A stretch of DNA of 52,371 nucleotides from Deltaproteobacteria bacterium (GTDB taxonomy: Bacteria > Myxococcota_A > Polyangia > Polyangiales > B10-G4). A program made the translations under genes and the position numbers. Shown piece after piece: positions 38,196-46,759 of the stretch. Position 1 is the stretch's first letter. Each line of letters begins with the position of its first letter. The notes beneath the pieces were generated by a model. It searched no databases and had not been told where the DNA came from. It saw only the letters and a program-made list of their open reading frames with translations. Where the stretch lies: positions 1-52,371 of the forward strand of contig QMMC01000002.1 in assembly GCA_003647065.1 (NCBI GenBank). Reading direction: 5' to 3'.

Positions 38196-39689
38196 TCAGG
38201 GAGGGCAGGCTCGGTTGCAGACGATGCTCCCGTCGGTGCACGTCGCGTCTCCACCGCCGCATGTCGAGTACTGGCACGTCGCCGACGGCACGTCGCAGCG
38301 TAGGCGGCATTTGGCGTCGGCGTGGCAATTGACGGTGCAGTTCGTCGCGCCGCGACAGTCTACATCACAGCTCGTATTGCGGTCCTTGCACTCGACGGTG
38401 ATGGTCTCACCGGACTGCATGCGGAAGTCGCAGTCGGCGCCGCTCTTGCAAAGCCCCGTGAACACCGCCGGGCTGCTCCCGAGCACGGTGCATTGGGTGT
38501 TGCGTTGCTCGCAGGTGATTAGACAATCCCTCGAGTCCGAGCAGAGGTAGCCGCAGTGGGCCCCGCCCGCGCACCCACAGTCCGCCGTGGACGGGTTACA
38601 GCCGTCGTTGCAGGGCCCGGCGAAGCAATCAATATGACAGAGCCCCCCGTTGCAGACCCCCGCGCAGGACGTCCCGCACGCGCCGCAGTTGTCCTCGTCT
38701 TCGTCTGGTCTTGATTCGCAGCCGTCCGTCGCCGATCCATTGCAATCGTTGAAGCCCGGGTCGCAAGAGTCGACGAGACAAGACGACGTCGAGCACTCCG
38801 GCGTTCCGTTGGGTGCTTCGCACGCGACGCCGCAAGCCCCGCAATCGGTCAGGGTATCGACGGCCATCTCGCAGCCGTTGGCCTCCATGCCATCGCAGTC
38901 ACCGAAGCCGATTTCACACGCGAAGTTGCACTCGCCGGCGCCGCAGCCGGCGACGGCGTGGTCCCGGGAGCAATCCACGCCGCAAGCGCCGCAGTCCGCC
39001 GGTGAATCCAGAGGTGCCTCGCACCCATTTCCGAGCACGCCATCGCAGTCATCGAAGCCCGCGTCGCAGCTCACGGCGCAGGCCCGTTCTACACAGGCCG
39101 GCTCAGCGTTCATCGGCGCCGAACAGGCCATATCGCAATCCCCGCAGTTCGCCGGGTCGTCCTCGGTGTTCACGCAGCGCGTTTCGCCGCAGAGGGTTGT
39201 TCCCGTAGCGCAGGTCGCGACGCACGTCGACGAACCCCCGAGGGTCTGACAGAGAGAACGCGTCACGCCGCACGCGGTGGTGCAGGAGCCGCAGCGCGCC
39301 GGCTCGGTCGTCGACGCTTCGCAGCCGTTCGACCGATCGCCATCGCAGTCGTCGAAGCCGGCATCGCAGTCGAGCCCGCAGACCCCCATGGTGCACATGG
39401 CGGCCGCGTTGGCCGGATCCACGCCGCAAGAAGTGCCGCACCGGCCACAGTTCTCGGGGTCCGCCATGATGTCGAACCCCTCGTCGATCATGCCATCGCA
39501 GTCGTCGTCAGCGGCATTGCAGCTCTCGGCCCTCGGGACGCATGCGTCGGGCCCGCGTACGCCCGTATCGCCCCCGTCGCCCCCGGAGTCCGCGGGCCCA
39601 GCGGCATCGGATCGGGGGAGCAAGGCACCGGTCTCGAGGGAGCACGCGGTGAGGAGCACGGCGATGGGCAGCCAGATGAAGCGAAGCAC
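38196..39689 (-). CDS. Cys-rich repeat lipoprotein
   Basis: GTG start, lipobox LTA|C; repeats CDAGFDDCDG...NGCE...CGxCG; C-terminal CxxxCxxxC-type domain. Confidence 0.85.
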   Translation of the reverse strand: MLRFIWLPIAVLLTACSLETGALLPRSDAAGPADSGGDGGDTGVRGPDACVPRAESCNAADDDCDGMIDEGFDIMADPENCGRCGTSCGVDPANAAAMCTMGVCGLDCDAGFDDCDGDRSNGCEASTTEPARCGSCTTACGVTRSLCQTLGGSSTCVATCATGTTLCGETRCVNTEDDPANCGDCDMACSAPMNAEPACVERACAVSCDAGFDDCDGVLGNGCEAPLDSPADCGACGVDCSRDHAVAGCGAGECNFACEIGFGDCDGMEANGCEMAVDTLTDCGACGVACEAPNGTPECSTSSCLVDSCDPGFNDCNGSATDGCESRPDEDEDNCGACGTSCAGVCNGGLCHIDCFAGPCNDGCNPSTADCGCAGGAHCGYLCSDSRDCLITCEQRNTQCTVLGSSPAVFTGLCKSGADCDFRMQSGETITVECKDRNTSCDVDCRGATNCTVNCHADAKCRLRCDVPSATCQYSTCGGGDATCTDGSIVCNRACPP

Positions 39690-40005
39690 GGTCTCCAAAG
39701 TGTACCCGAATGCCGACACCGGCAGATTCCCGCCGCTCGCCATGGTGTTCGGCCAGGCGACCCAGTGGCTCTCGGGTAGGCTCATGAAATGCGCCGGGGC
39801 CCGGCCGTGGGGTCCTCGGCCCCACCCGTCTGGCGACGGCGCCGCGGCCCAAGGGGGCCCGAAGTCCACCGGATCGGGCCCTCGAACTCCCCATGAGTAC
39901 GGGAAAGAGCCCCAAGTCGGTGATGGCACATCGTTTGCGGTTGAATCCGGTGCCGCCCCCAACCGGGAACCCCCGGCCCCAGCCGCAGTCTCACCAAGGA
40001 AATCC

Positions 40006-41352
40006 ATGTTGCTCGTACGACGCCTCTGCGCCTTCGCGATCACCGCCGCCGCCGCCACCACGTTGTCGGCCTGCGCCGCCCCCGGCGCCGACTACACCGA
40101 CAATGAAGGGGACGACCCTTACAAGTACGAGCAGCTCGAACTCTCGCGGAACGGCCGCTACACCCCCCCGGCCGACATCAAAGCGGCAGGCGAAGCCCAG
40201 CGGGGCACGTACCAATCCGCTGGCTCCTGGAATGGCGGTCGCAACTGCAGCGGGACCTTCACCGCCGGCGCTCGGGAACTCGGGCAGTATCTGGTCGAGA
40301 ATTTCGCGGCCACTTCATTCGAGGGCTACAGCTGCCGGCGCAACACCGCCGACCGTTCGCGCATGTCGATGCACGCCACAGGCCGGGCAATCGACGTCAT
40401 GATCCCCCTCGACGGGGGCCAGGCAGACAACGGCCTCGGGGACCCGATCGCCAACTATCTCATTCGCAACGCGACCGAGATCGGCGTGCAGTTCTTCATC
40501 TGGGACCGCACCAAGTGGAACATCCGGTACAGCGGTCGGAAGGATAAGAGCTACGGCGGCCCCCACCCCCACCACGACCATCTGCACATCGAGTTGAGTG
40601 CGGCTGGCAGTCGGCGGAGCACCCCTTGGTTCAACCGCGACTCGGGCACCAGCGACGTCACGCCGGTCGCTGATTCGCCAGCGGACAGCGGCGACACGCC
40701 GGCGGACAGCGGCGGCACCGCCGAGCCGACGCCGGACTTCGCCAGCGGCTGCACCGAGACGTGCCCCTACAGCGGCGACGGGGACTGCGACGACGGCGGC
40801 GACGGATCGGCCTACTCGGTGTGCGAGCTGGGAACCGACTGCCGCGACTGCGGGACCCGAAGCTCATCAGGCACAGCGACGCCCCCGAGCACCGACCCGG
40901 CCCCCTCGGAGCCCACCACGAGCTGCTCCGATTCATGCACCTACGCCCGAGACGGCGAGTGCGATGACGGTGGCCCCGGGGCGGCCTACACGGACTGCGC
41001 CCTCGGCACGGACTGCTCGGACTGCGGACCCCGAGGTGGCTCGTCGACCGAGCCTGTCGCCGCTTGCGGTGACGGGTGGTGCGACGCCGGCGAGACCTGC
41101 GGCACGTGCCCCGCGGATTGCGGAGTGTGCCCGGCGGAGGGGTGCGCCATCCCTGGTCACGGGACGAACGCCGAAGACGGCGGAAGCTGTTCCACCCTGG
41201 AATCCTGGCGCTGCGTATACAGCGCCCGGTATGGCTCGACCGTCTCTCAGGTGTGCCGGAGCGGCGGGTGGCTCAACTTCCACACGTCGCCCCGGGGCTG
41301 CGACACCTGCTGCGGCAGTTACTCCAGCGACTGTCGCCAAGCCGGGTCCTGA
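40006..41352 (+). CDS. Lipoprotein with LAS/M15-like zinc peptidase domain and Cys-rich repeats
   Basis: AAGGA RBS; lipobox LSA|C; SMHATGRAID (Hx6D) and HHDHLHIE (HxH); two CxYxxDGxCDDGGxG...CxLGTDCxDCG repeats. Confidence 0.82.
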   Translation: MLLVRRLCAFAITAAAATTLSACAAPGADYTDNEGDDPYKYEQLELSRNGRYTPPADIKAAGEAQRGTYQSAGSWNGGRNCSGTFTAGARELGQYLVENFAATSFEGYSCRRNTADRSRMSMHATGRAIDVMIPLDGGQADNGLGDPIANYLIRNATEIGVQFFIWDRTKWNIRYSGRKDKSYGGPHPHHDHLHIELSAAGSRRSTPWFNRDSGTSDVTPVADSPADSGDTPADSGGTAEPTPDFASGCTETCPYSGDGDCDDGGDGSAYSVCELGTDCRDCGTRSSSGTATPPSTDPAPSEPTTSCSDSCTYARDGECDDGGPGAAYTDCALGTDCSDCGPRGGSSTEPVAACGDGWCDAGETCGTCPADCGVCPAEGCAIPGHGTNAEDGGSCSTLESWRCVYSARYGSTVSQVCRSGGWLNFHTSPRGCDTCCGSYSSDCRQAGS

Positions 41353-41368
41353 CGAAGGCCCGGCCCGC

Positions 41369-42319
41369 TCAGTCCAGGATGGCGACGAGCTCTACGTCGA
41401 AGACCAGCATGCCCGCCGGGGCGCCGGGGCGGCCCTGGTAGGCGAGGTTCTCGGGGATCCAGAAGCGGCGCTGCTCGCCGGCGACCATGAGCTGCAGCCC
41501 CTCGGTCCAACCGGCGATGACCCGGTTGAGGGGGAAGACCGCGGGCTCGCCGCGGGTGCGGGAGCTGTCGAACATGTTCCCGTCCGTCGTCCACCCGGTG
41601 TAATGCACGCGCACCCGGCTCGTCTCGGCGGGGTGGGCGTCACCGGTCCCAGCCTCGATGACCTTGGACGCGAGGCCGCTGTCGGTGCGCTCCGCGTCCG
41701 CGGGGGCAGCCGCGACGTCGGTGGGGGCCGTCGGCGACCGGAGGATGCTCACCAACTCGATGTCGAAGACCAGCATGCCCGCGGGTGCGCCGGGGCGACC
41801 CTGGTAGGCGAGGGCCTCGGGGATCCACGCCCGCACCTTCTCGCCTTCGGCCATCAGCTTGAGCACCTCGGTCCAGCCAGCGATGACCCCGGTCACGCCG
41901 AAGGTGGCCGGCTGACCGCGGGCGATGGAACTGTCGAACATGTTTCCGTCGGTCGTCCAGCCGGTGTAGTGCACGCTCACCCGGTCCGCATCTGCGGGCT
42001 TGTTGTCGCTACTGCCGGGGCGGAGGACCTTGTAGGCGAGGCCTGACTCGGTGCGGGTCGCGTCAGCCGGAGCCTCGGCGACGTCGCTCGGTGCGGGGAT
42101 CGCGTTCGGCGCCGGCGGCCGGGCGCCGGCCTTCGTCGGAGTCCGGGCGGCCGCTGCGTTGTCCGCCGTGGGGGTGTCCCTGGACCCTGTCTCTTCATCG
42201 GAAGAGGCCGCCTCGTCCGTATTCGAGAAATCCGGCTCCTGGGCCCGGTCGCAACCGAGGGCCAGAAGGGAGGAGACGAGGATGAGGGCGGCGCTCCGCG
42301 CCAGCGTTTCGGCGGTCAT
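41369..42319 (-). CDS. FKBP-type peptidyl-prolyl isomerase lipoprotein with two FKBP domains
   Basis: VHYTGWTTDGNMFDSS...VIAGWTE...GMLVFD(I/V)ELV twice; lipobox ALG|C. Confidence 0.95.
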   Translation of the reverse strand: MTAETLARSAALILVSSLLALGCDRAQEPDFSNTDEAASSDEETGSRDTPTADNAAAARTPTKAGARPPAPNAIPAPSDVAEAPADATRTESGLAYKVLRPGSSDNKPADADRVSVHYTGWTTDGNMFDSSIARGQPATFGVTGVIAGWTEVLKLMAEGEKVRAWIPEALAYQGRPGAPAGMLVFDIELVSILRSPTAPTDVAAAPADAERTDSGLASKVIEAGTGDAHPAETSRVRVHYTGWTTDGNMFDSSRTRGEPAVFPLNRVIAGWTEGLQLMVAGEQRRFWIPENLAYQGRPGAPAGMLVFDVELVAILD

Positions 42320-43103
42320 GGGAGCGGGTCGTAGTCCAATGTGGGGGCCGTTTCAACCGGCTCGCCGACTGAAATGGAAGCCATGACGCGGTAGGCGTCG
42401 GATGGCCGAGGATCTATCGACCGCCGGTGGTCGTCGTCGGGGCCTCGGCGCCCCCCTGGAGGGGCCCCACGCGCTCATTCGAGTTCCCGTTCGATGCGAA
42501 TATCGGGGGCGCGCACGACATCGCCCGCGGCGTCGGTACCGACCGTGAGTTCGAAAACGGACGTGATTCCATCATCATCGAGGTCTCCGTGGGCTCGGAA
42601 GGTATAGAGCGCCTCGTTCGGCCCGTGGCCGCAGCTGGCCGGAGGGGCAACGATCTCATACCGGAAATAGACGGGACCGGTGACGGGAAAGCCAATCTCG
42701 CGGAAAGGGGCATCAAGGGCACCTAGCGCCTGAAGCTCGGAGCCGGGCACGTTGGTGGTAATGGCAGGGCCAACTGTGCAGTTGCTCTCGTAGGAGCCGC
42801 CTGCTCGCGAGCGTTCTTGCATGTAATATCCGGTCGCACCCACGAAGAGCATCCCAAGGTTCGAGTGGGCCTCGAGAGTCTTCAAGCGCCGCACGTGGTC
42901 AGCCGGCGAGGCTGCGGCCTCCGAGGTCTCGTGACCCGCAGGCTCCGACGACGGCGGGTCGGAGGCCTCATGCTCATCGGCCCGATCGCAGCCGAGAGCC
43001 GATAGAGAGAAAACGAAGAGGAGGGCGGCGCTCCACGCCAGCGTTTCGGCGGTCATGGGAGCGGCTCGTAGTCCAATGTGGGTGCAGTTTCAACCGGCTC
43101 GCC
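42242..43103. repeat. Dispersed 125-bp direct repeat (42242-42366 and 42979-43103) covering upstream region plus signal peptide
   Basis: The last 83 bp match at 79 positions by manual alignment; both copies encode MTAETLAxSAAL...ALGCDRA. Confidence 0.92.
42475..43056 (-). CDS. Lipoprotein carrying a type IV pilin-like head domain (chimeric gene)
   Basis: FKBP-like signal peptide, then HVRRLKTLEAHSNL...AHGDLDDDG...ERELE, clearly paralogous to 45378-46001. Confidence 0.8.
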   Translation of the reverse strand: MTAETLAWSAALLFVFSLSALGCDRADEHEASDPPSSEPAGHETSEAAASPADHVRRLKTLEAHSNLGMLFVGATGYYMQERSRAGGSYESNCTVGPAITTNVPGSELQALGALDAPFREIGFPVTGPVYFRYEIVAPPASCGHGPNEALYTFRAHGDLDDDGITSVFELTVGTDAAGDVVRAPDIRIERELE

Positions 43104-43126
43104 ACGGGGGCCGAGATAGACGCCGC

Positions 43127-44653
43127 CTACCCGCAGAGATTGTCGCGGGGGACGCACTGCTTCGGGATGTAGAACTGGTCCTCGATGTCGGTGAGGCGGG
43201 CGCAGCGCGCGCCCTCGCCGCAGGCGGCGTCGGTGGTGCAGCCGACGCCGCACCTTCCCTCGCCACCGATGCCGAGGCAGAGGTTGCCGCCAGCGCCGCA
43301 GTCGGCGTCCGTGGTGCACGGCTGACAGGCGATGCCTTCGGATGCATGGGGGTTGAGCTGCGGGTCGCCGTCGATGCCGTGCACGCCGTAGTGCACGCTG
43401 CGGAAGGCTTCGGTATTGAGGCCGCGCAGCATGCTCAGCCAGCTGATGGGGTAGTGCCGGCCGGCGTCATCCGTGATGGTCAACCAGGTCACGAACTCGT
43501 GCAGGGTCTGATATCCCACCGAGAACGGGGTGGTGTTCACGGTCGTGACGATGTCGACGTTGTCGAAGGTCTTGTTGGGGTTCGCCATCAAGTCGTCGAC
43601 GTAGCTGCGGTAGGTCTGGCAGCCGTCGAGAACGAAAATCTGATAGCTGTCGCGCATCTCGAGGGTGGCGAAATCACGTGCCGGGATTTCGTGGCGCGGC
43701 TGGTAGTCGAGGATGAAGCCGGCCCCGGGGCCCGCGTGGCCCGAGTAGATCACGACGTCACGGGCCCGGAAGCTCTCACGAATGGCGTCGCTCAGCTTGG
43801 ACTCCTCGTCGGCGGTGACCATGTCCGAGTGGTAGACGTAGACCCGAACCTCGACCTCCCGGCTTTCGACGAAGATCGTCTTGGTGAACGGAGGCGAGTC
43901 GATGGCGAGGGACTCGAAGTCCGACACCGCCTGGTTTTCGAAGCCGCGTTCGTTCAGGAGGTATTCGACGAGCCACTTCGCGGTCTCGAGGTCGAAGCGA
44001 CCTTCGTTGTAGTCGCCGCCGAAGTGAATGCCGATGTCGTAGATGCCATCGGCGAAGAGCTCGTCGTACTTCGGGAAAGCGTCACGGCTCTCGCTGCCCG
44101 CGATCTCGACCTCGACCGTCTCACCGGTGGGCTCGGACCAATCTTGGACGGTCACCGAGAAGGTACGCCGGCTCGCCGTGCCGGGAGCCAGCTGGCTCAT
44201 GAGGTAGTGGCTGCCCACCAGGCCGATTCGAAAGGTGAACCGAGCCTCGGTTCCGACGACTTCGGTCCCCTCGGTCTCGGCGGCGTTCTTCTGGAAGTAG
44301 GTGAACCAGCTGACGTCGTCCCCGGTCTCGCCGCCGTTGGATTCCCCGACGACCGACGTCACGTGAGCCCGAATTGCACGGCTCACGGTGTTGAGGCGTC
44401 CCTGAACGGCCCGGTCGAGGGCTGCGTTCTGCTCATCCTCGGACAGGTCCGCGTAGTCCTCGGGGAGGGCTGCGTGGGCGATGCCGCTGAGTTCGAACTC
44501 CCGGGCGTTGGAGGAGATGTAGTTGTCGGCCTTGCCGTCCTCGGCCGGGATGACTTCGTGGGGGCCCGCTCCCGCTTCGATGGAAGCGTTGGGGCCAGAG
44601 ACCGCGCACCCGGTGAGGGCGAGCAAGAGGGCGTTCATGACGAGGCGAGACAT
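43127..44653 (-). CDS. Lipoprotein with putative caspase/gingipain-like (clan CD) His-Cys domain and C-terminal Cys-rich module
   Basis: Lipobox LTG|C; DGKAD motif; DVVIYSGHAG and YQIFVLDGCQT. Confidence 0.7.
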   Translation of the reverse strand: MSRLVMNALLLALTGCAVSGPNASIEAGAGPHEVIPAEDGKADNYISSNAREFELSGIAHAALPEDYADLSEDEQNAALDRAVQGRLNTVSRAIRAHVTSVVGESNGGETGDDVSWFTYFQKNAAETEGTEVVGTEARFTFRIGLVGSHYLMSQLAPGTASRRTFSVTVQDWSEPTGETVEVEIAGSESRDAFPKYDELFADGIYDIGIHFGGDYNEGRFDLETAKWLVEYLLNERGFENQAVSDFESLAIDSPPFTKTIFVESREVEVRVYVYHSDMVTADEESKLSDAIRESFRARDVVIYSGHAGPGAGFILDYQPRHEIPARDFATLEMRDSYQIFVLDGCQTYRSYVDDLMANPNKTFDNVDIVTTVNTTPFSVGYQTLHEFVTWLTITDDAGRHYPISWLSMLRGLNTEAFRSVHYGVHGIDGDPQLNPHASEGIACQPCTTDADCGAGGNLCLGIGGEGRCGVGCTTDAACGEGARCARLTDIEDQFYIPKQCVPRDNLCG

Positions 44654-44806
44654 GGTGCGCTTGCCTAACGCAACAGACATGCCAGAAAGCGCCCCCAGAA
44701 AGCGCAGCGATTCCTTAGCCTTGCCGGTGGTGGTGGTGGCCACCGGTCTCGCCGCGGCCGCCGCGCGAGCCGGGGAGCCTTGCCGCTGCGCCCTAAGCCT
44801 TCGGCC

Positions 44807-45322
44807 CTACTCGCAGGCGCCGGGGCCGTCCATCAGCGCCCCGTCCGCCCCGCAGCGGTAACGGCAGATGGTCGAGTCACCCTCGCACCCTACGGAGCAG
44901 CTGCCGAGGCAGGTGACGGTGCACTCGCCGCGGTCGATGCACGAGACGCTCGACCCGGCGCCTACCTCGATGGTGCAGTTCGCCGCGCGGCAGAGGACCA
45001 TCGAGTCATCGCCAGCGTAGAGCACGCAGGTGGTGCCCTCGACGCAGGTGAGGTCGCTGTTGTTGCCGCCGGCGGCGCCGCAGTCGGAGTCTTCCTTGCA
45101 CTCGAAGGCGCAGCTGTCGCCGCACTGGAGCGCGCACTGGGAACTCGTGTCACAGGCGCAGTCGTTCGCGTCGACGCAGGGGCAAGCGTCCCCGGGACAG
45201 GTCGGATAGTCCGGCAAGACGGGGCCCGACTCGCTCGAGCATGCGGCAAGCCCAAAGACCACAAGAGACGCAAGGGCGATGGACAGGCCGAGGGCCGGGG
45301 TGAAAGACGTGACCTTGATCAT
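44807..45322 (-). CDS. Small Cys-rich lipoprotein
   Basis: Lipobox LAA|C; regularly spaced Cys similar to the C-terminal domain of 38196-39689. Confidence 0.8.
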   Translation of the reverse strand: MIKVTSFTPALGLSIALASLVVFGLAACSSESGPVLPDYPTCPGDACPCVDANDCACDTSSQCALQCGDSCAFECKEDSDCGAAGGNNSDLTCVEGTTCVLYAGDDSMVLCRAANCTIEVGAGSSVSCIDRGECTVTCLGSCSVGCEGDSTICRYRCGADGALMDGPGACE

Positions 45323-45360
45323 TCGAGTTCCTGTTCGATGTAAAGAGCGGGGGCGGGAGT
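45319..45360 (-). pseudogene. Orphan 3' tail of a third pilin-like gene
   Basis: Reads TPAPALYIEQELE-stop, versus RTPGFYVGQELE-stop and RAPDIRIERELE-stop; DNA repeats 45376-45412; no start codon. Confidence 0.7.
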
Positions 45361-45377
45361 AAGAGACGTACGCTGGA

Positions 45378-46001
45378 TCATTCGAGTTCCTGTCCGACGT
45401 AGAAACCCGGGGTACGGAAGACCTCGCCCATTTCGTTGGTGCCGACGGAGAGTTCGAGGAGCGAGGTCACCCCATCGCCGTCGAGGTCACCATGGGCCCG
45501 GAAGCTATAGAGCGCTTCGTTTGGCCCATGGCCACAGCGGGCCGGGCCGGCGACGATTTCGTATTGGAAGAAGACCGGCTCGAAGGGCGCGAAGCCGAGT
45601 TCGCTGAATGCGGCGTCGAGGGGGCCGAGCACCTGTTTCTGGTCGGTCGGTACGTTCGGGGTGACGGCCGGCCCGACCGTGCAATGGGTCTGGGTCGTCC
45701 CGTCCGGACCCATGCGCTCCTGTTCGTAATAGCTCGCCGCGCCGGCGAAGAGCGTCCTGAGGTTCGAGGTCGCCTCGGCGGTATTGGACCGGCGCACGTA
45801 GTTGATGAACGCGGGGATGGCGATGGCAGCCAGCACGCCGGTGCAGGGCACACAGCCGACGACGAGGACCAGCACCAGGATCAGCAGGCCGACCTTCTTC
45901 TTGGGGGCAGGAGACGGAGGAGACGCCGGAGTCGGCGGAGTCGGCGGAGTCGGCGGAGACGCCGGAGTCGGCGGACCGCCGTAGGCTGGAGCACTGGCCA
46001 T
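45378..46001 (-). CDS. Type IV pilin-like protein with non-canonical Pro-rich N-terminus
   Basis: GVLAAIAIPAFINYVRRSNTAEATSNL is a pilin alpha1 helix; no G|FTLxE prepilin site; (PPT)n leader, KKK, then TM helix. Confidence 0.8.
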   Translation of the reverse strand: MASAPAYGGPPTPASPPTPPTPPTPASPPSPAPKKKVGLLILVLVLVVGCVPCTGVLAAIAIPAFINYVRRSNTAEATSNLRTLFAGAASYYEQERMGPDGTTQTHCTVGPAVTPNVPTDQKQVLGPLDAAFSELGFAPFEPVFFQYEIVAGPARCGHGPNEALYSFRAHGDLDGDGVTSLLELSVGTNEMGEVFRTPGFYVGQELE

Positions 46002-46087
46002 GGCCGAAACGCTCTCACGGTGACTGGCGTCGCGGCAAGTGAATGGCACAGAAGTGGACCCCGCCGGGCTTGCCTCCCTAGCCTGGG

Positions 46088-46759
46088 GTGGTGAAGCACC
46101 AAGCGCCCCGATTCCGGCTGCAGAACCCATTGCTGACAGCCCTCTTGCTGCTCTCGTCCTCGGTGATGCTCGGCGCCTGCGGCGGCGCGACACCGGACGC
46201 CAACGAGCCGCTCCGGGGCGCCGGGGCGCAGCACGAACTCTCCACCGACGATCCCATCGCCCAGGCCCTCGCCGCCCGCCTGACGATCTGGGTCTCCCGG
46301 GACGGTGAGCCGACCTACGCGCGGCATTGTCGCAACGCCCCCGGAGGCTGCGAAGCGCGCATCGCGACGCTCGCCGAGCTGCTCGAAGATGCCGCCGACC
46401 GCCACGGCCTCGACCCCTGGCTCTTCGCCGCCGTCGCCGTGCGCGAGTCGATGTTGAACCCGGCCGCCATCGGCGCCCAGGGCGAGGCGGGCATCGTCCA
46501 GCTGCACCCCCGCGGCGCCGGCCACGACATGCGCTACGTCCAAGACGCGTCCTACCGCGAAGCGTGCCAGAGCCGCGTCGACGCCTGCCAGGGGCCGGTC
46601 GTCGAGCGCGGCGCCCAACACCTCGCCGATGCGATCGAAGGCTGCGGCGGCACCCGCGCCGGCCTCGGCAAGTACGCGTCCGGGCGCTGCGGAGCGGCGG
46701 CGACCTACGTCGAGCGAATGATGGCCGAGCGCGACCGCCTCGAGTCGTCCCAGCGCTGA
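46088..46759 (+). CDS. SLT-domain lytic transglycosylase lipoprotein
   Basis: Lipobox LGA|C; HGLDPWLFAAVAVRES (catalytic Glu), GEAGIVQL, LGKYASG. Confidence 0.85.
   Translation: MVKHQAPRFRLQNPLLTALLLLSSSVMLGACGGATPDANEPLRGAGAQHELSTDDPIAQALAARLTIWVSRDGEPTYARHCRNAPGGCEARIATLAELLEDAADRHGLDPWLFAAVAVRESMLNPAAIGAQGEAGIVQLHPRGAGHDMRYVQDASYREACQSRVDACQGPVVERGAQHLADAIEGCGGTRAGLGKYASGRCGAAATYVERMMAERDRLESSQR

Follow-up and report, generated by a model that had tools for sequence, protein, structure and literature searches.

We analysed a stretch of 52,371 nucleotides (hereafter the window) of contig QMMC01000002.1 from a Deltaproteobacteria bacterium placed in Myxococcota_A (GenBank assembly GCA_003647065.1). 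Four genes lie in a row on its minus strand: a Cys-rich lipoprotein gene (44807-45322), a conserved lipoprotein gene here called g538 (43127-44743), the gene that is the subject of this work (42475-43056) and a gene for an FKBP-type peptidyl-prolyl isomerase (PPIase; 41369-42319). We call the third of these the neighbour gene, after its position beside the FKBP gene, and we call a gene encoding a similar head domain at 45378-46001 the paralogue. The preliminary description of this locus had proposed that the neighbour gene consists of the FKBP 5′ region and lipoprotein signal, a linker and a pilin head without its hydrophobic helix, and this architecture was borne out. The parts discussed below are the following.

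42475-43056, minus strand: neighbour open reading frame (ORF), a predicted lipoprotein precursor of 193 codons; stop codon at 42475-42477.
42979-43056, minus strand: neighbour codons 1-26, a signal peptide of lipoprotein type whose lipobox reads ...SALGC (Cys23), then D-R-A (from the translation and the lipobox pattern).
42901-42978, minus strand: neighbour codons 27-52, acidic Ser/Pro/Ala-rich linker, predicted to be disordered (from the predicted local distance difference test score, pLDDT, and composition).
42478-42900, minus strand: neighbour codons 53-193, second half of pilin alpha-1 plus globular head, 59% identical to the paralogue head.
43057-43103, minus strand: upstream half of the neighbour cassette copy, 47 non-coding nucleotides (nt) directly before the ATG, 44/47 the same as 42320-42366.
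42320-42366, minus strand: upstream half of the FKBP cassette copy, the donor copy (from the repeat search, alignment and core-pattern count).
41369-42319, minus strand: FKBP-type peptidyl-prolyl isomerase lipoprotein, 316 residues, with the FKBP_C domain present twice; the donor signal peptide is encoded by codons 1-26 (42242-42319).
45378-46001, minus strand: paralogue, 207 residues from the ATG at 46001, in an ORF that runs to 46193; no other product of the window is more closely related to the neighbour's head.

A repeat search of the window detected a direct repeat of 132 nt at 87% identity, linking 42235-42366 with 42972-43103 at a spacing of 737. The shared segment that had been noticed earlier ahead of both genes is thereby confirmed: its copies match at 115/132 bases without gaps, and the ungapped local alignment spans -47 to +85 around each ATG, with 44/47 upstream bases and 70/84 bases of codons 1-28 the same. 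Similarity stops sharply at either end. A 32-nt core pattern of the cassette occurs exactly twice in the window, compared with a mean of 0.00 in shuffled sequence (n = 100), and the longest run identical between the two copies is 29 nt. Over codons 1-28, the neighbour and FKBP genes differ with dS 0.36 and dN 0.13, and the upstream 47 nt diverge at 3/47 positions, less than the synonymous sites of the cassette (Fisher p 0.011). Because these 47 nt are 94% identical, co-regulation of the neighbour gene with the PPIase appears plausible.

The upstream part of the neighbour's cassette begins 23 nt past the stop codon of the upstream gene and contains no Shine-Dalgarno-like purine run (43057-43103). 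A sigma-70 consensus scan of 41200-46300 returned 0 sites, and the only terminator-like site found in the scan of this interval was judged irrelevant. Two other candidates were set aside: the combination TTGAAA, 17 nt, TACGAC, lying 8 nt ahead of each ATG, was picked out by eye and would mean a leaderless transcript, but it failed the scan criteria and stays a guess; a GG-N10-GC spacing reminiscent of sigma-54 was rejected as too near the ATG. Rfam gave 0 matches at E <= 1 across 41300-46200, and the RNA folds of both 5′ regions were no better than those of shuffled sequences (z -0.17 and 0.00).

Both proteins open with a lipoprotein-type signal ending ...ALGC-DRA. The lipobox pattern employed (PROSITE PS51257) matches the neighbour at ...LFVFSLSALGC, where the invariant cysteine (Cys23) follows a hydrophobic stretch within about the first 35 residues; it also matches the FKBP protein, g538, a 171-residue Cys-rich protein and P0002, a related protein described below. 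The neighbour carries this signal in place of a class III prepilin signal, with neither a GFxxxE motif nor a match to PF07963, and it has no hydrophobic N-terminal half of alpha-1, its best 19-residue hydropathy window past residue 30 scoring 0.89 compared with 2.86 in the paralogue. It contains no FKBP_C domain and shares only the 5′ cassette with the FKBP gene. The neighbour matched neither a Pfam nor an NCBIfam model.

The part of the neighbour that begins at codon 53 (DHVRR...) and extends to the stop gives a gap-free alignment with the head encoded by ORF 45378-46193, in which 83/141 residues are identical (E 1e-58); at the DNA level the two heads are 68% identical. The neighbour retains the family's conserved Cys pair, GDLDxDG loop and C-terminal ELE. 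The intervening residues 24-52, which give the mature protein a linker of about 25-30 residues, are acidic and predicted to be disordered, and the predicted structure has pLDDT < 50 across residues 1-46. Codons 29-52, a linker of 24 codons, show no DNA similarity to either the FKBP gene or the paralogue; when the linker was compared with the region encoding the paralogue's membrane helix, 567/1000 shuffles scored as well. It can be aligned in part with the linker of P0002. Pro51 lines up with a conserved helix proline, and extension of the head homology upstream into the linker was considered on that basis; it was rejected, as the DNA similarity is not above chance.

At its N-terminus the paralogue has a Pro-rich tail, followed by KKK, by about 30 hydrophobic residues that end in ...GVLAAIAIPAF and by a head like that of the neighbour. 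It has no GFxxxE motif and no lipobox match, its strongest 19-residue hydropathy window (2.86) lies at residue 39, and the NCBIfam model for Myxococcus PilA matches it over the helix only (34 bits; cutoff 400). Its Pro/Thr/Ser-rich tail is encoded by five overlapping copies of a repeat with a 9-nt period (45910-45975; GGAG(A/T)CGNC-type on the plus strand) and is missing from the related proteins P0003 and P0004.

A word-indexed homology search with the neighbour found 6 proteins, itself included. When 1.84 billion representatives were searched with a profile, 5286 proteins matched at E <= 1e-3 and 113 at E <= 1e-30. Homology connects the head with proteins that have GFTLIE and PF07963 (for example P0006, E 6.8e-16), and 85 of 155 family members are canonical by motif. 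All 17 genomic loci found to encode the head come from Myxococcota bins: 12 specify canonical GFTLIE prepilins and 5 specify membrane-helix forms, in which a basic stretch precedes a long hydrophobic helix ending AIAIPAF, without Gly|Phe or Glu5; no lipobox form occurs at these 17 loci. A search for proteins combining a lipobox with a pilin head had been recommended, and among the 155 family proteins it yielded one clear example besides the window's own, P0002, together with an ambiguous case (P0073). A pilin gene behind a PilR-like regulator is the usual arrangement of a major pilin, and in 3 of 4 canonical loci examined among the 12 the gene directly upstream encodes a PilR-like sigma-54 response regulator. 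Such pilins carry the site which, according to PMC11046646, is cleaved by PilD between Gly and Phe of GFxxxE.

In a quick tree, 29 of 82 rows fell into a mostly motif-less clade with a support of 97, an indication that the pilin-derived proteins of Myxococcota include a sizeable, undescribed clade without a prepilin site. The loci of this clade lie away from pilus genes (22 ORFs scanned around 5 loci), and the neighbourhoods of the 5 membrane-helix loci have no common theme except a DUF2330 gene upstream in two Sandaracinaceae loci. When 13 proteins of the window were compared with the 17 related loci by tblastn, only the two pilin-like queries matched. The parent of the neighbour's head was already a non-canonical, pilus-incompetent derivative rather than a working pilin. 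Of the head columns that are nearly invariant in an 83-sequence alignment, the neighbour keeps all 15.

Members of the motif-less clade (the paralogue, loci L001-L005 and many of the representatives) have a basic N-terminal stretch followed by a hydrophobic helix of ~30 residues, and in many of them a conserved Pro-Cys precedes G(V/I)LAAIAIPAF. In the head encoded at 42478-42900 and across the family alignment, a nearly invariant GDLDGDG loop between two strands resembles the calcium-binding motif DxDxDG and is a putative site of that kind. The conserved Cys pair corresponds to Cys93 and Cys142 of the neighbour, a position that differs from the usual C-terminal pilin disulfide. At one canonical locus (L010, 6273-8408), a homologue of TMEM260-like O-mannosyltransferases stands between the PilR-like gene and tandem pilin genes, which hints at pilin glycosylation.

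An AlphaFold model of the neighbour's head, built with 83 aligned sequences, was very confident (pLDDT 96.9; predicted template modelling score, pTM, 0.90) and comprises a 29-residue helix (5-33) followed by five strands. In Foldseek searches of the PDB with two models, the top-ranked matches were pilins, weak throughout (E 0.75-2; template modelling score, TM, 0.33-0.38): C. difficile PilW at E 0.75 with the first model and 1.5 with the second, and D. nodosus FimA at E 2.0. A structure search of the ESM Atlas gave TM 0.65-0.67 to Myxococcota clusters, one of them named Type IV pilin PilA family, which we use as a lead and not as a test. Because no PDB match reached E <= 0.001, the pilin ancestry of the head rests on sequence homology. 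The proposal of a pilin-like domain is upheld by the homology to GFTLIE prepilins, while in the structural comparison pilins rank first but weakly, and the head is a divergent structural variant.

The preliminary description left the direction of copying unproven. Among the 120 FKBP homologues listed, Cys-Asp-Arg follows the lipobox only in the window's protein and two close orthologues. Those two (284/316 and 265/316 positions identical) and a third orthologue (310/316) all keep the signal and CDRAQEPDFS. Because the FKBP orthologues keep this signal, while relatives of the head have pilin-type or membrane-helix N-termini, we conclude that the cassette is native to the FKBP gene and that copying ran from FKBP to the neighbour, which settles the direction. 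The graft itself holds as described, with the cassette coming from FKBP and the head from the pilin-like family of the paralogue.

The age of the fusion was addressed through P0002, a protein of 187 residues, which is identical to the neighbour at 98/182 residues (54%) and has a lipobox, then DRAQ as in FKBP, a linker and a matching head. In a tree of the head columns only (82 rows, 146 columns; bootstrap not fully settled), the neighbour and P0002 are sisters with a support of 100/96, and the pair joins the window's paralogue at 99/93 (96 and 94 in the quick run). Measured from the duplication node, the path to the neighbour has a length of 0.54 and that to the paralogue one of 0.22, so the lipoprotein lineage has evolved ~2.4 times faster than the membrane-helix paralogue. 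Comparison of the two heads gave dN 0.28 and dS 1.12, a ratio of 0.25, which supplies the dN/dS estimate that had been proposed as a check. A single origin of the fusion is largely shown: a gene that had already lost the motif was duplicated, and the duplicate became fused before the P0002 lineage branched off.

The fusion is accordingly older than was thought in the preliminary description, according to which the gene was newly made in this genome by duplication of the FKBP cassette onto a local pilin-like copy. That account, which we now consider very improbable, drew strength from both parents lying within 4 kb on the same strand, in a region with other duplications (the FKBP domain repeats and a 59-nt tandem repeat). 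As regards recency, however, it does not survive the comparison, since the cassette copies differ by 13%, the heads are only 68% identical at the DNA level with dS 1.12, P0002 is sister to the neighbour and shares the fusion and linker, and the parent was already non-canonical. The cassette, for its part, is younger than the head split or has been refreshed. In its first seven residues, the neighbour's signal agrees with the window-type FKBP but not with P0259, the 84%-identical orthologue. These features would most simply be read as the result of gene conversion that followed the graft.

Comparison with relatives, another check that had been suggested, made use of the gene upstream of the neighbour as a synteny marker.

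43127-44653, minus strand: g538, conserved Myxococcota/Bradymonadia lipoprotein; the ORF extends to 44743, and the ATG at 44653 gives a 508-residue form also recorded for this contig.

On a 5127-nt contig of one relative, the orthologues of g538 (477/503) and FKBP (284/316) carry consecutive protein accessions, and no head homologue is listed there by two gene-calling sources. On a 33405-nt contig of another, both flanking genes are 98% identical to those of the window. The neighbour's 90% cluster holds the window's sequence alone, and the word-indexed search found no other close homologue. Hence the flanking genes are present and the neighbour gene appears to be absent, or not intact, between g538 and FKBP in both relatives. 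If the two direct repeats recombined with each other, precisely this gene would be lost. The 21277-nt contig of a near-identical strain has g538 (537/538) and, in its protein tables, neither FKBP nor the neighbour; this contig may end or break at the repeat.

The following history is largely borne out by these results. It starts from the canonical pilins of the family, which sit behind PilR-like regulators. One clade lost the prepilin motif, and a membrane helix that is not cleaved became its anchor. After duplication, one copy of such a membrane-helix gene gained the FKBP cassette, once, before the P0002 lineage split off, and the lipoprotein lineage has since evolved ~2.4 times faster than the paralogue under net purifying selection. 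The two direct repeats make the gene excisable, and close relatives appear to have no copy at the site. As an overall explanation, it is probable that the neighbour is a real but dispensable, fast-evolving lipoprotein displaying a non-polymerising pilin head and arose by this history. Function is favoured by the intact ORF, the dN/dS of 0.25, the conservation of 15/15 invariant head positions and the persistence of the architecture in P0002.

Several observations weigh against this explanation. The signal has no Lys or Arg in residues 1-10, and hence no positively charged n-region; R8, the sole basic residue of the FKBP signal, is W in the neighbour, a loss that could impair export. The G+C content at third codon positions (GC3) is 0.72 for the neighbour (0.70 for its head), lower than in all neighbouring genes (FKBP 0.90; paralogue 0.80), and fits weak selection or a foreign origin. 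The dN/dS of 0.25 averages over a long history, in which a recent relaxation would not show. Of the Foldseek matches at E <= 10, 0/204 and 0/331 reached E <= 0.001 with the two models. Absence from the relatives was judged by the order of accessions, the lengths of contigs and the protein tables rather than by DNA, and a pseudogene between the two genes would escape notice. Finally, the window is a single contig, and P0002 was compared as a protein.

Some of these points would be expected if the gene were a decaying by-product, the leftover of an old duplication that is heading for loss and is open by chance in a GC-rich genome, a setting that abounds in long spurious ORFs. The GC3 of 0.72 against 0.90 for FKBP, the change of R8 to W and the absence of the gene at the site in two relatives would all fit, as would the many long non-coding ORFs in the window; furthermore, 5/26 signal residues have changed between the neighbour and FKBP, compared with 0-1 among FKBP orthologues at 90-98% identity. 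Nevertheless, we think decay rather unlikely, because all 193 codons are intact with dN/dS 0.25 relative to the paralogue, 15/15 nearly invariant head residues are kept in a domain that is modelled very confidently, and P0002 has a like architecture at 54% identity. Recent import deserves somewhat more attention, even if we hold it to be improbable: the gene with its own cassette copy would have come, by homologous recombination through the cassette or the flanks, from a related lineage in which it likewise lies beside FKBP, and would not be a long-standing resident that the relatives have lost. Such an event would account for the absence of the gene here in relatives that have the flanking genes at 98% and 90-95% identity, for a GC3 below that of all neighbouring genes and for the 13% difference between cassette copies, far above the divergence of the flanking genes from their closest relative. 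However, deletion between the 132-nt direct repeats explains the absence equally well, the signal agrees in its first seven residues with the window-type FKBP, not with P0259, no mobile-element genes were found among the ORFs scanned around the neighbour, and no donor is known.

Misassembly was another concern, as the source appears to be a metagenome bin and a 737-nt unit could have been stitched into the contig from a second population; the absence of the gene from related contigs, including the contig of the near-identical strain that has g538 (537/538) but neither FKBP nor the neighbour, would be in line with this. An artefact is nonetheless scarcely credible, given that the identical run of 29 nt is the longest between the copies, that neither the left junction (43104-43126) nor the 108-nt spacer (42367-42474) has a second copy in the window that would permit a switch, and that two such joins would be needed, one into the other genome and one back out.

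On the explanation favoured here, that of a real but dispensable lipoprotein, Sec would export the neighbour, which would then receive its lipid and be cleaved ahead of Cys23. As it shares residues +2 to +4 (D-R-A) with the FKBP protein, both should end up in one and the same membrane. The +2 residue is Asp, which in E. coli retains lipoproteins in the inner membrane; for M. xanthus, PMC3222651 reports Lys at +2 in 8/12 inner-membrane lipoproteins and outer-membrane ones without a conserved residue. The acidic tether would be flexible and the head monomeric. With no Gly|Phe site, no Glu5 and no hydrophobic first half-helix, the protein should neither be processed by prepilin peptidase nor stack into a filament; accordingly, the prediction that the product cannot enter a pilus holds, there being no GFxxxE, no Glu5 and no hydrophobic half-helix.

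The neighbour may act as a monomeric binding module that its flexible tether holds within the envelope or at the cell surface. Our guess, by analogy, is that its likeliest ligand would be a glycan or matrix component: PMC12691611 describes PilACt (M. xanthus PilA residues 32-208) as soluble and as binding exopolysaccharide and glucosamine. Phage decoy, adhesin and modulator of pilus assembly, as put forward in the preliminary description, are further candidate roles. A fuller scenario would combine two-step re-anchoring (cleaved class III signal to uncleaved helix to lipid anchor), capture of the FKBP gene's compact cassette for expression and targeting (promoter-proximal DNA, a possibly leaderless start, signal peptide, lipobox and sorting residues), copies kept alike by gene conversion, clean loss via the repeats and a strain-variable, lipid-tethered, lectin-like surface module of pilus-subunit origin; it is doubtful that this holds in its entirety.

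The genes around the neighbour provide further context. The FKBP protein matches Pfam FKBP_C in two stretches (E 2.8e-44) and NCBIfam PRK11570 at 203.6 bits (cutoff 198), and it exceeds the cutoff of the NCBIfam BamJ model (155.6 bits compared with 100), a hint that it may take part in assembling the proteins of the outer membrane. Its gene holds an internal 300-nt duplication (41376-42041; 76% identical, spacing 366) that corresponds to the two FKBP_C domains, and homologues elsewhere, at 390-553 residues, outscore the window's own protein, suggesting extra FKBP domains. g538 matched no Pfam family and has 191 homologues at E <= 1e-20, mostly of about 505 residues; its lipobox was read from M31, and it carries a C-terminal Cys-rich repeat.

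Between the paralogue and the Cys-rich lipoprotein gene, a 59-nt tandem duplication (45277-45394; 76% identical) covers the stop of the former and the start of the latter. One copy keeps ...QELE-stop overlapping a decayed ATG-ATC start and the other has the live start at 45322, which suggests that the two genes once overlapped by ATGA and may have been translationally coupled. A 37-nt match (86%) of the neighbour's 3′ end to 45319-45355 was considered as the relic of a third pilin-like gene, but the tandem duplication explains it better. At 38196-41352, two long ORFs overlap on opposite strands: 38196-40061 (minus) encodes a Cys-rich, MXAN_6577-like product, and 39277-41352 (plus) encodes a product with a weak extensin-like C-terminal match, whose longest reading of 691 residues probably starts too early. 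The window abounds in secreted proteins with Cys repeats (MopE motif, DUF4215), and no pilus-related genes were found among the 23 window ORFs scanned.

Compared with PilA type IV major pilins of Myxococcota, the canonical members of its own head family among them, the neighbour has a homologous second half of alpha-1 and head, with the same Cys pair, GDLDGDG loop and C-terminal ELE; it differs in having a lipobox instead of the class III signal, in the loss of Gly-1, Phe1, Glu5 and the hydrophobic N-terminal half of alpha-1, and in not lying near pilus genes. The sizes of large Myxococcota pilins reported in PMC11046646 fit the canonical family members. Like PilACt, the neighbour is a pilin head without a membrane helix, its homology beginning at about mature residue 26 (counted from the alignment); unlike PilACt, it is natural, predicted to be lipid-anchored via a tether, and from another head subfamily. 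The family profile gave no significant match to the M. xanthus PilA head (second stretch, i-Evalue 36). The closest relatives of the neighbour, the GFxxxE-less membrane-helix clade (45378-46001; L001-L005; P0003-P0005 and others), share the head, the missing prepilin site and a location away from pilus genes, but keep the ~30 hydrophobic residues ending AIAIPAF as an uncleaved anchor where the neighbour has a lipid anchor and linker.

The mode of origin recalls the 'upstream homology box' of Borrelia erp/ospE/ospF genes, a promoter-plus-signal cassette shared by recombination ahead of different mature proteins. The neighbour and FKBP genes, however, are two tandem chromosomal copies rather than a multicopy plasmid or prophage family, and they have no antigenic-variation context. 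The type V pilins of Bacteroidota (FimA/Mfa1) are likewise lipoprotein precursors, but they polymerise after cleavage, their fold and assembly mechanism are unrelated to the neighbour, and the neighbour has no known assembly route. In the portions of the literature that full-text searches brought up, no description of a lipobox-bearing type IV pilin head was found.

The neighbour gene was built by capturing the 5′ cassette of an adjacent gene, and its product is a new, patchily present anchoring variant of a pilin-derived domain. Its origin is unusually clear, with donor, recipient and junction in one window, a sister sequence that dates the event and close relatives apparently without the gene. 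What defines pilins is a special signal and the capacity to polymerise; here, the head is reused as a stand-alone, differently anchored envelope protein. It may in effect be a natural lipid-tethered counterpart of the laboratory construct PilACt, and if its head binds exopolysaccharide like the M. xanthus pilin head, it would provide a natural, ready-made probe of pilin-matrix recognition.

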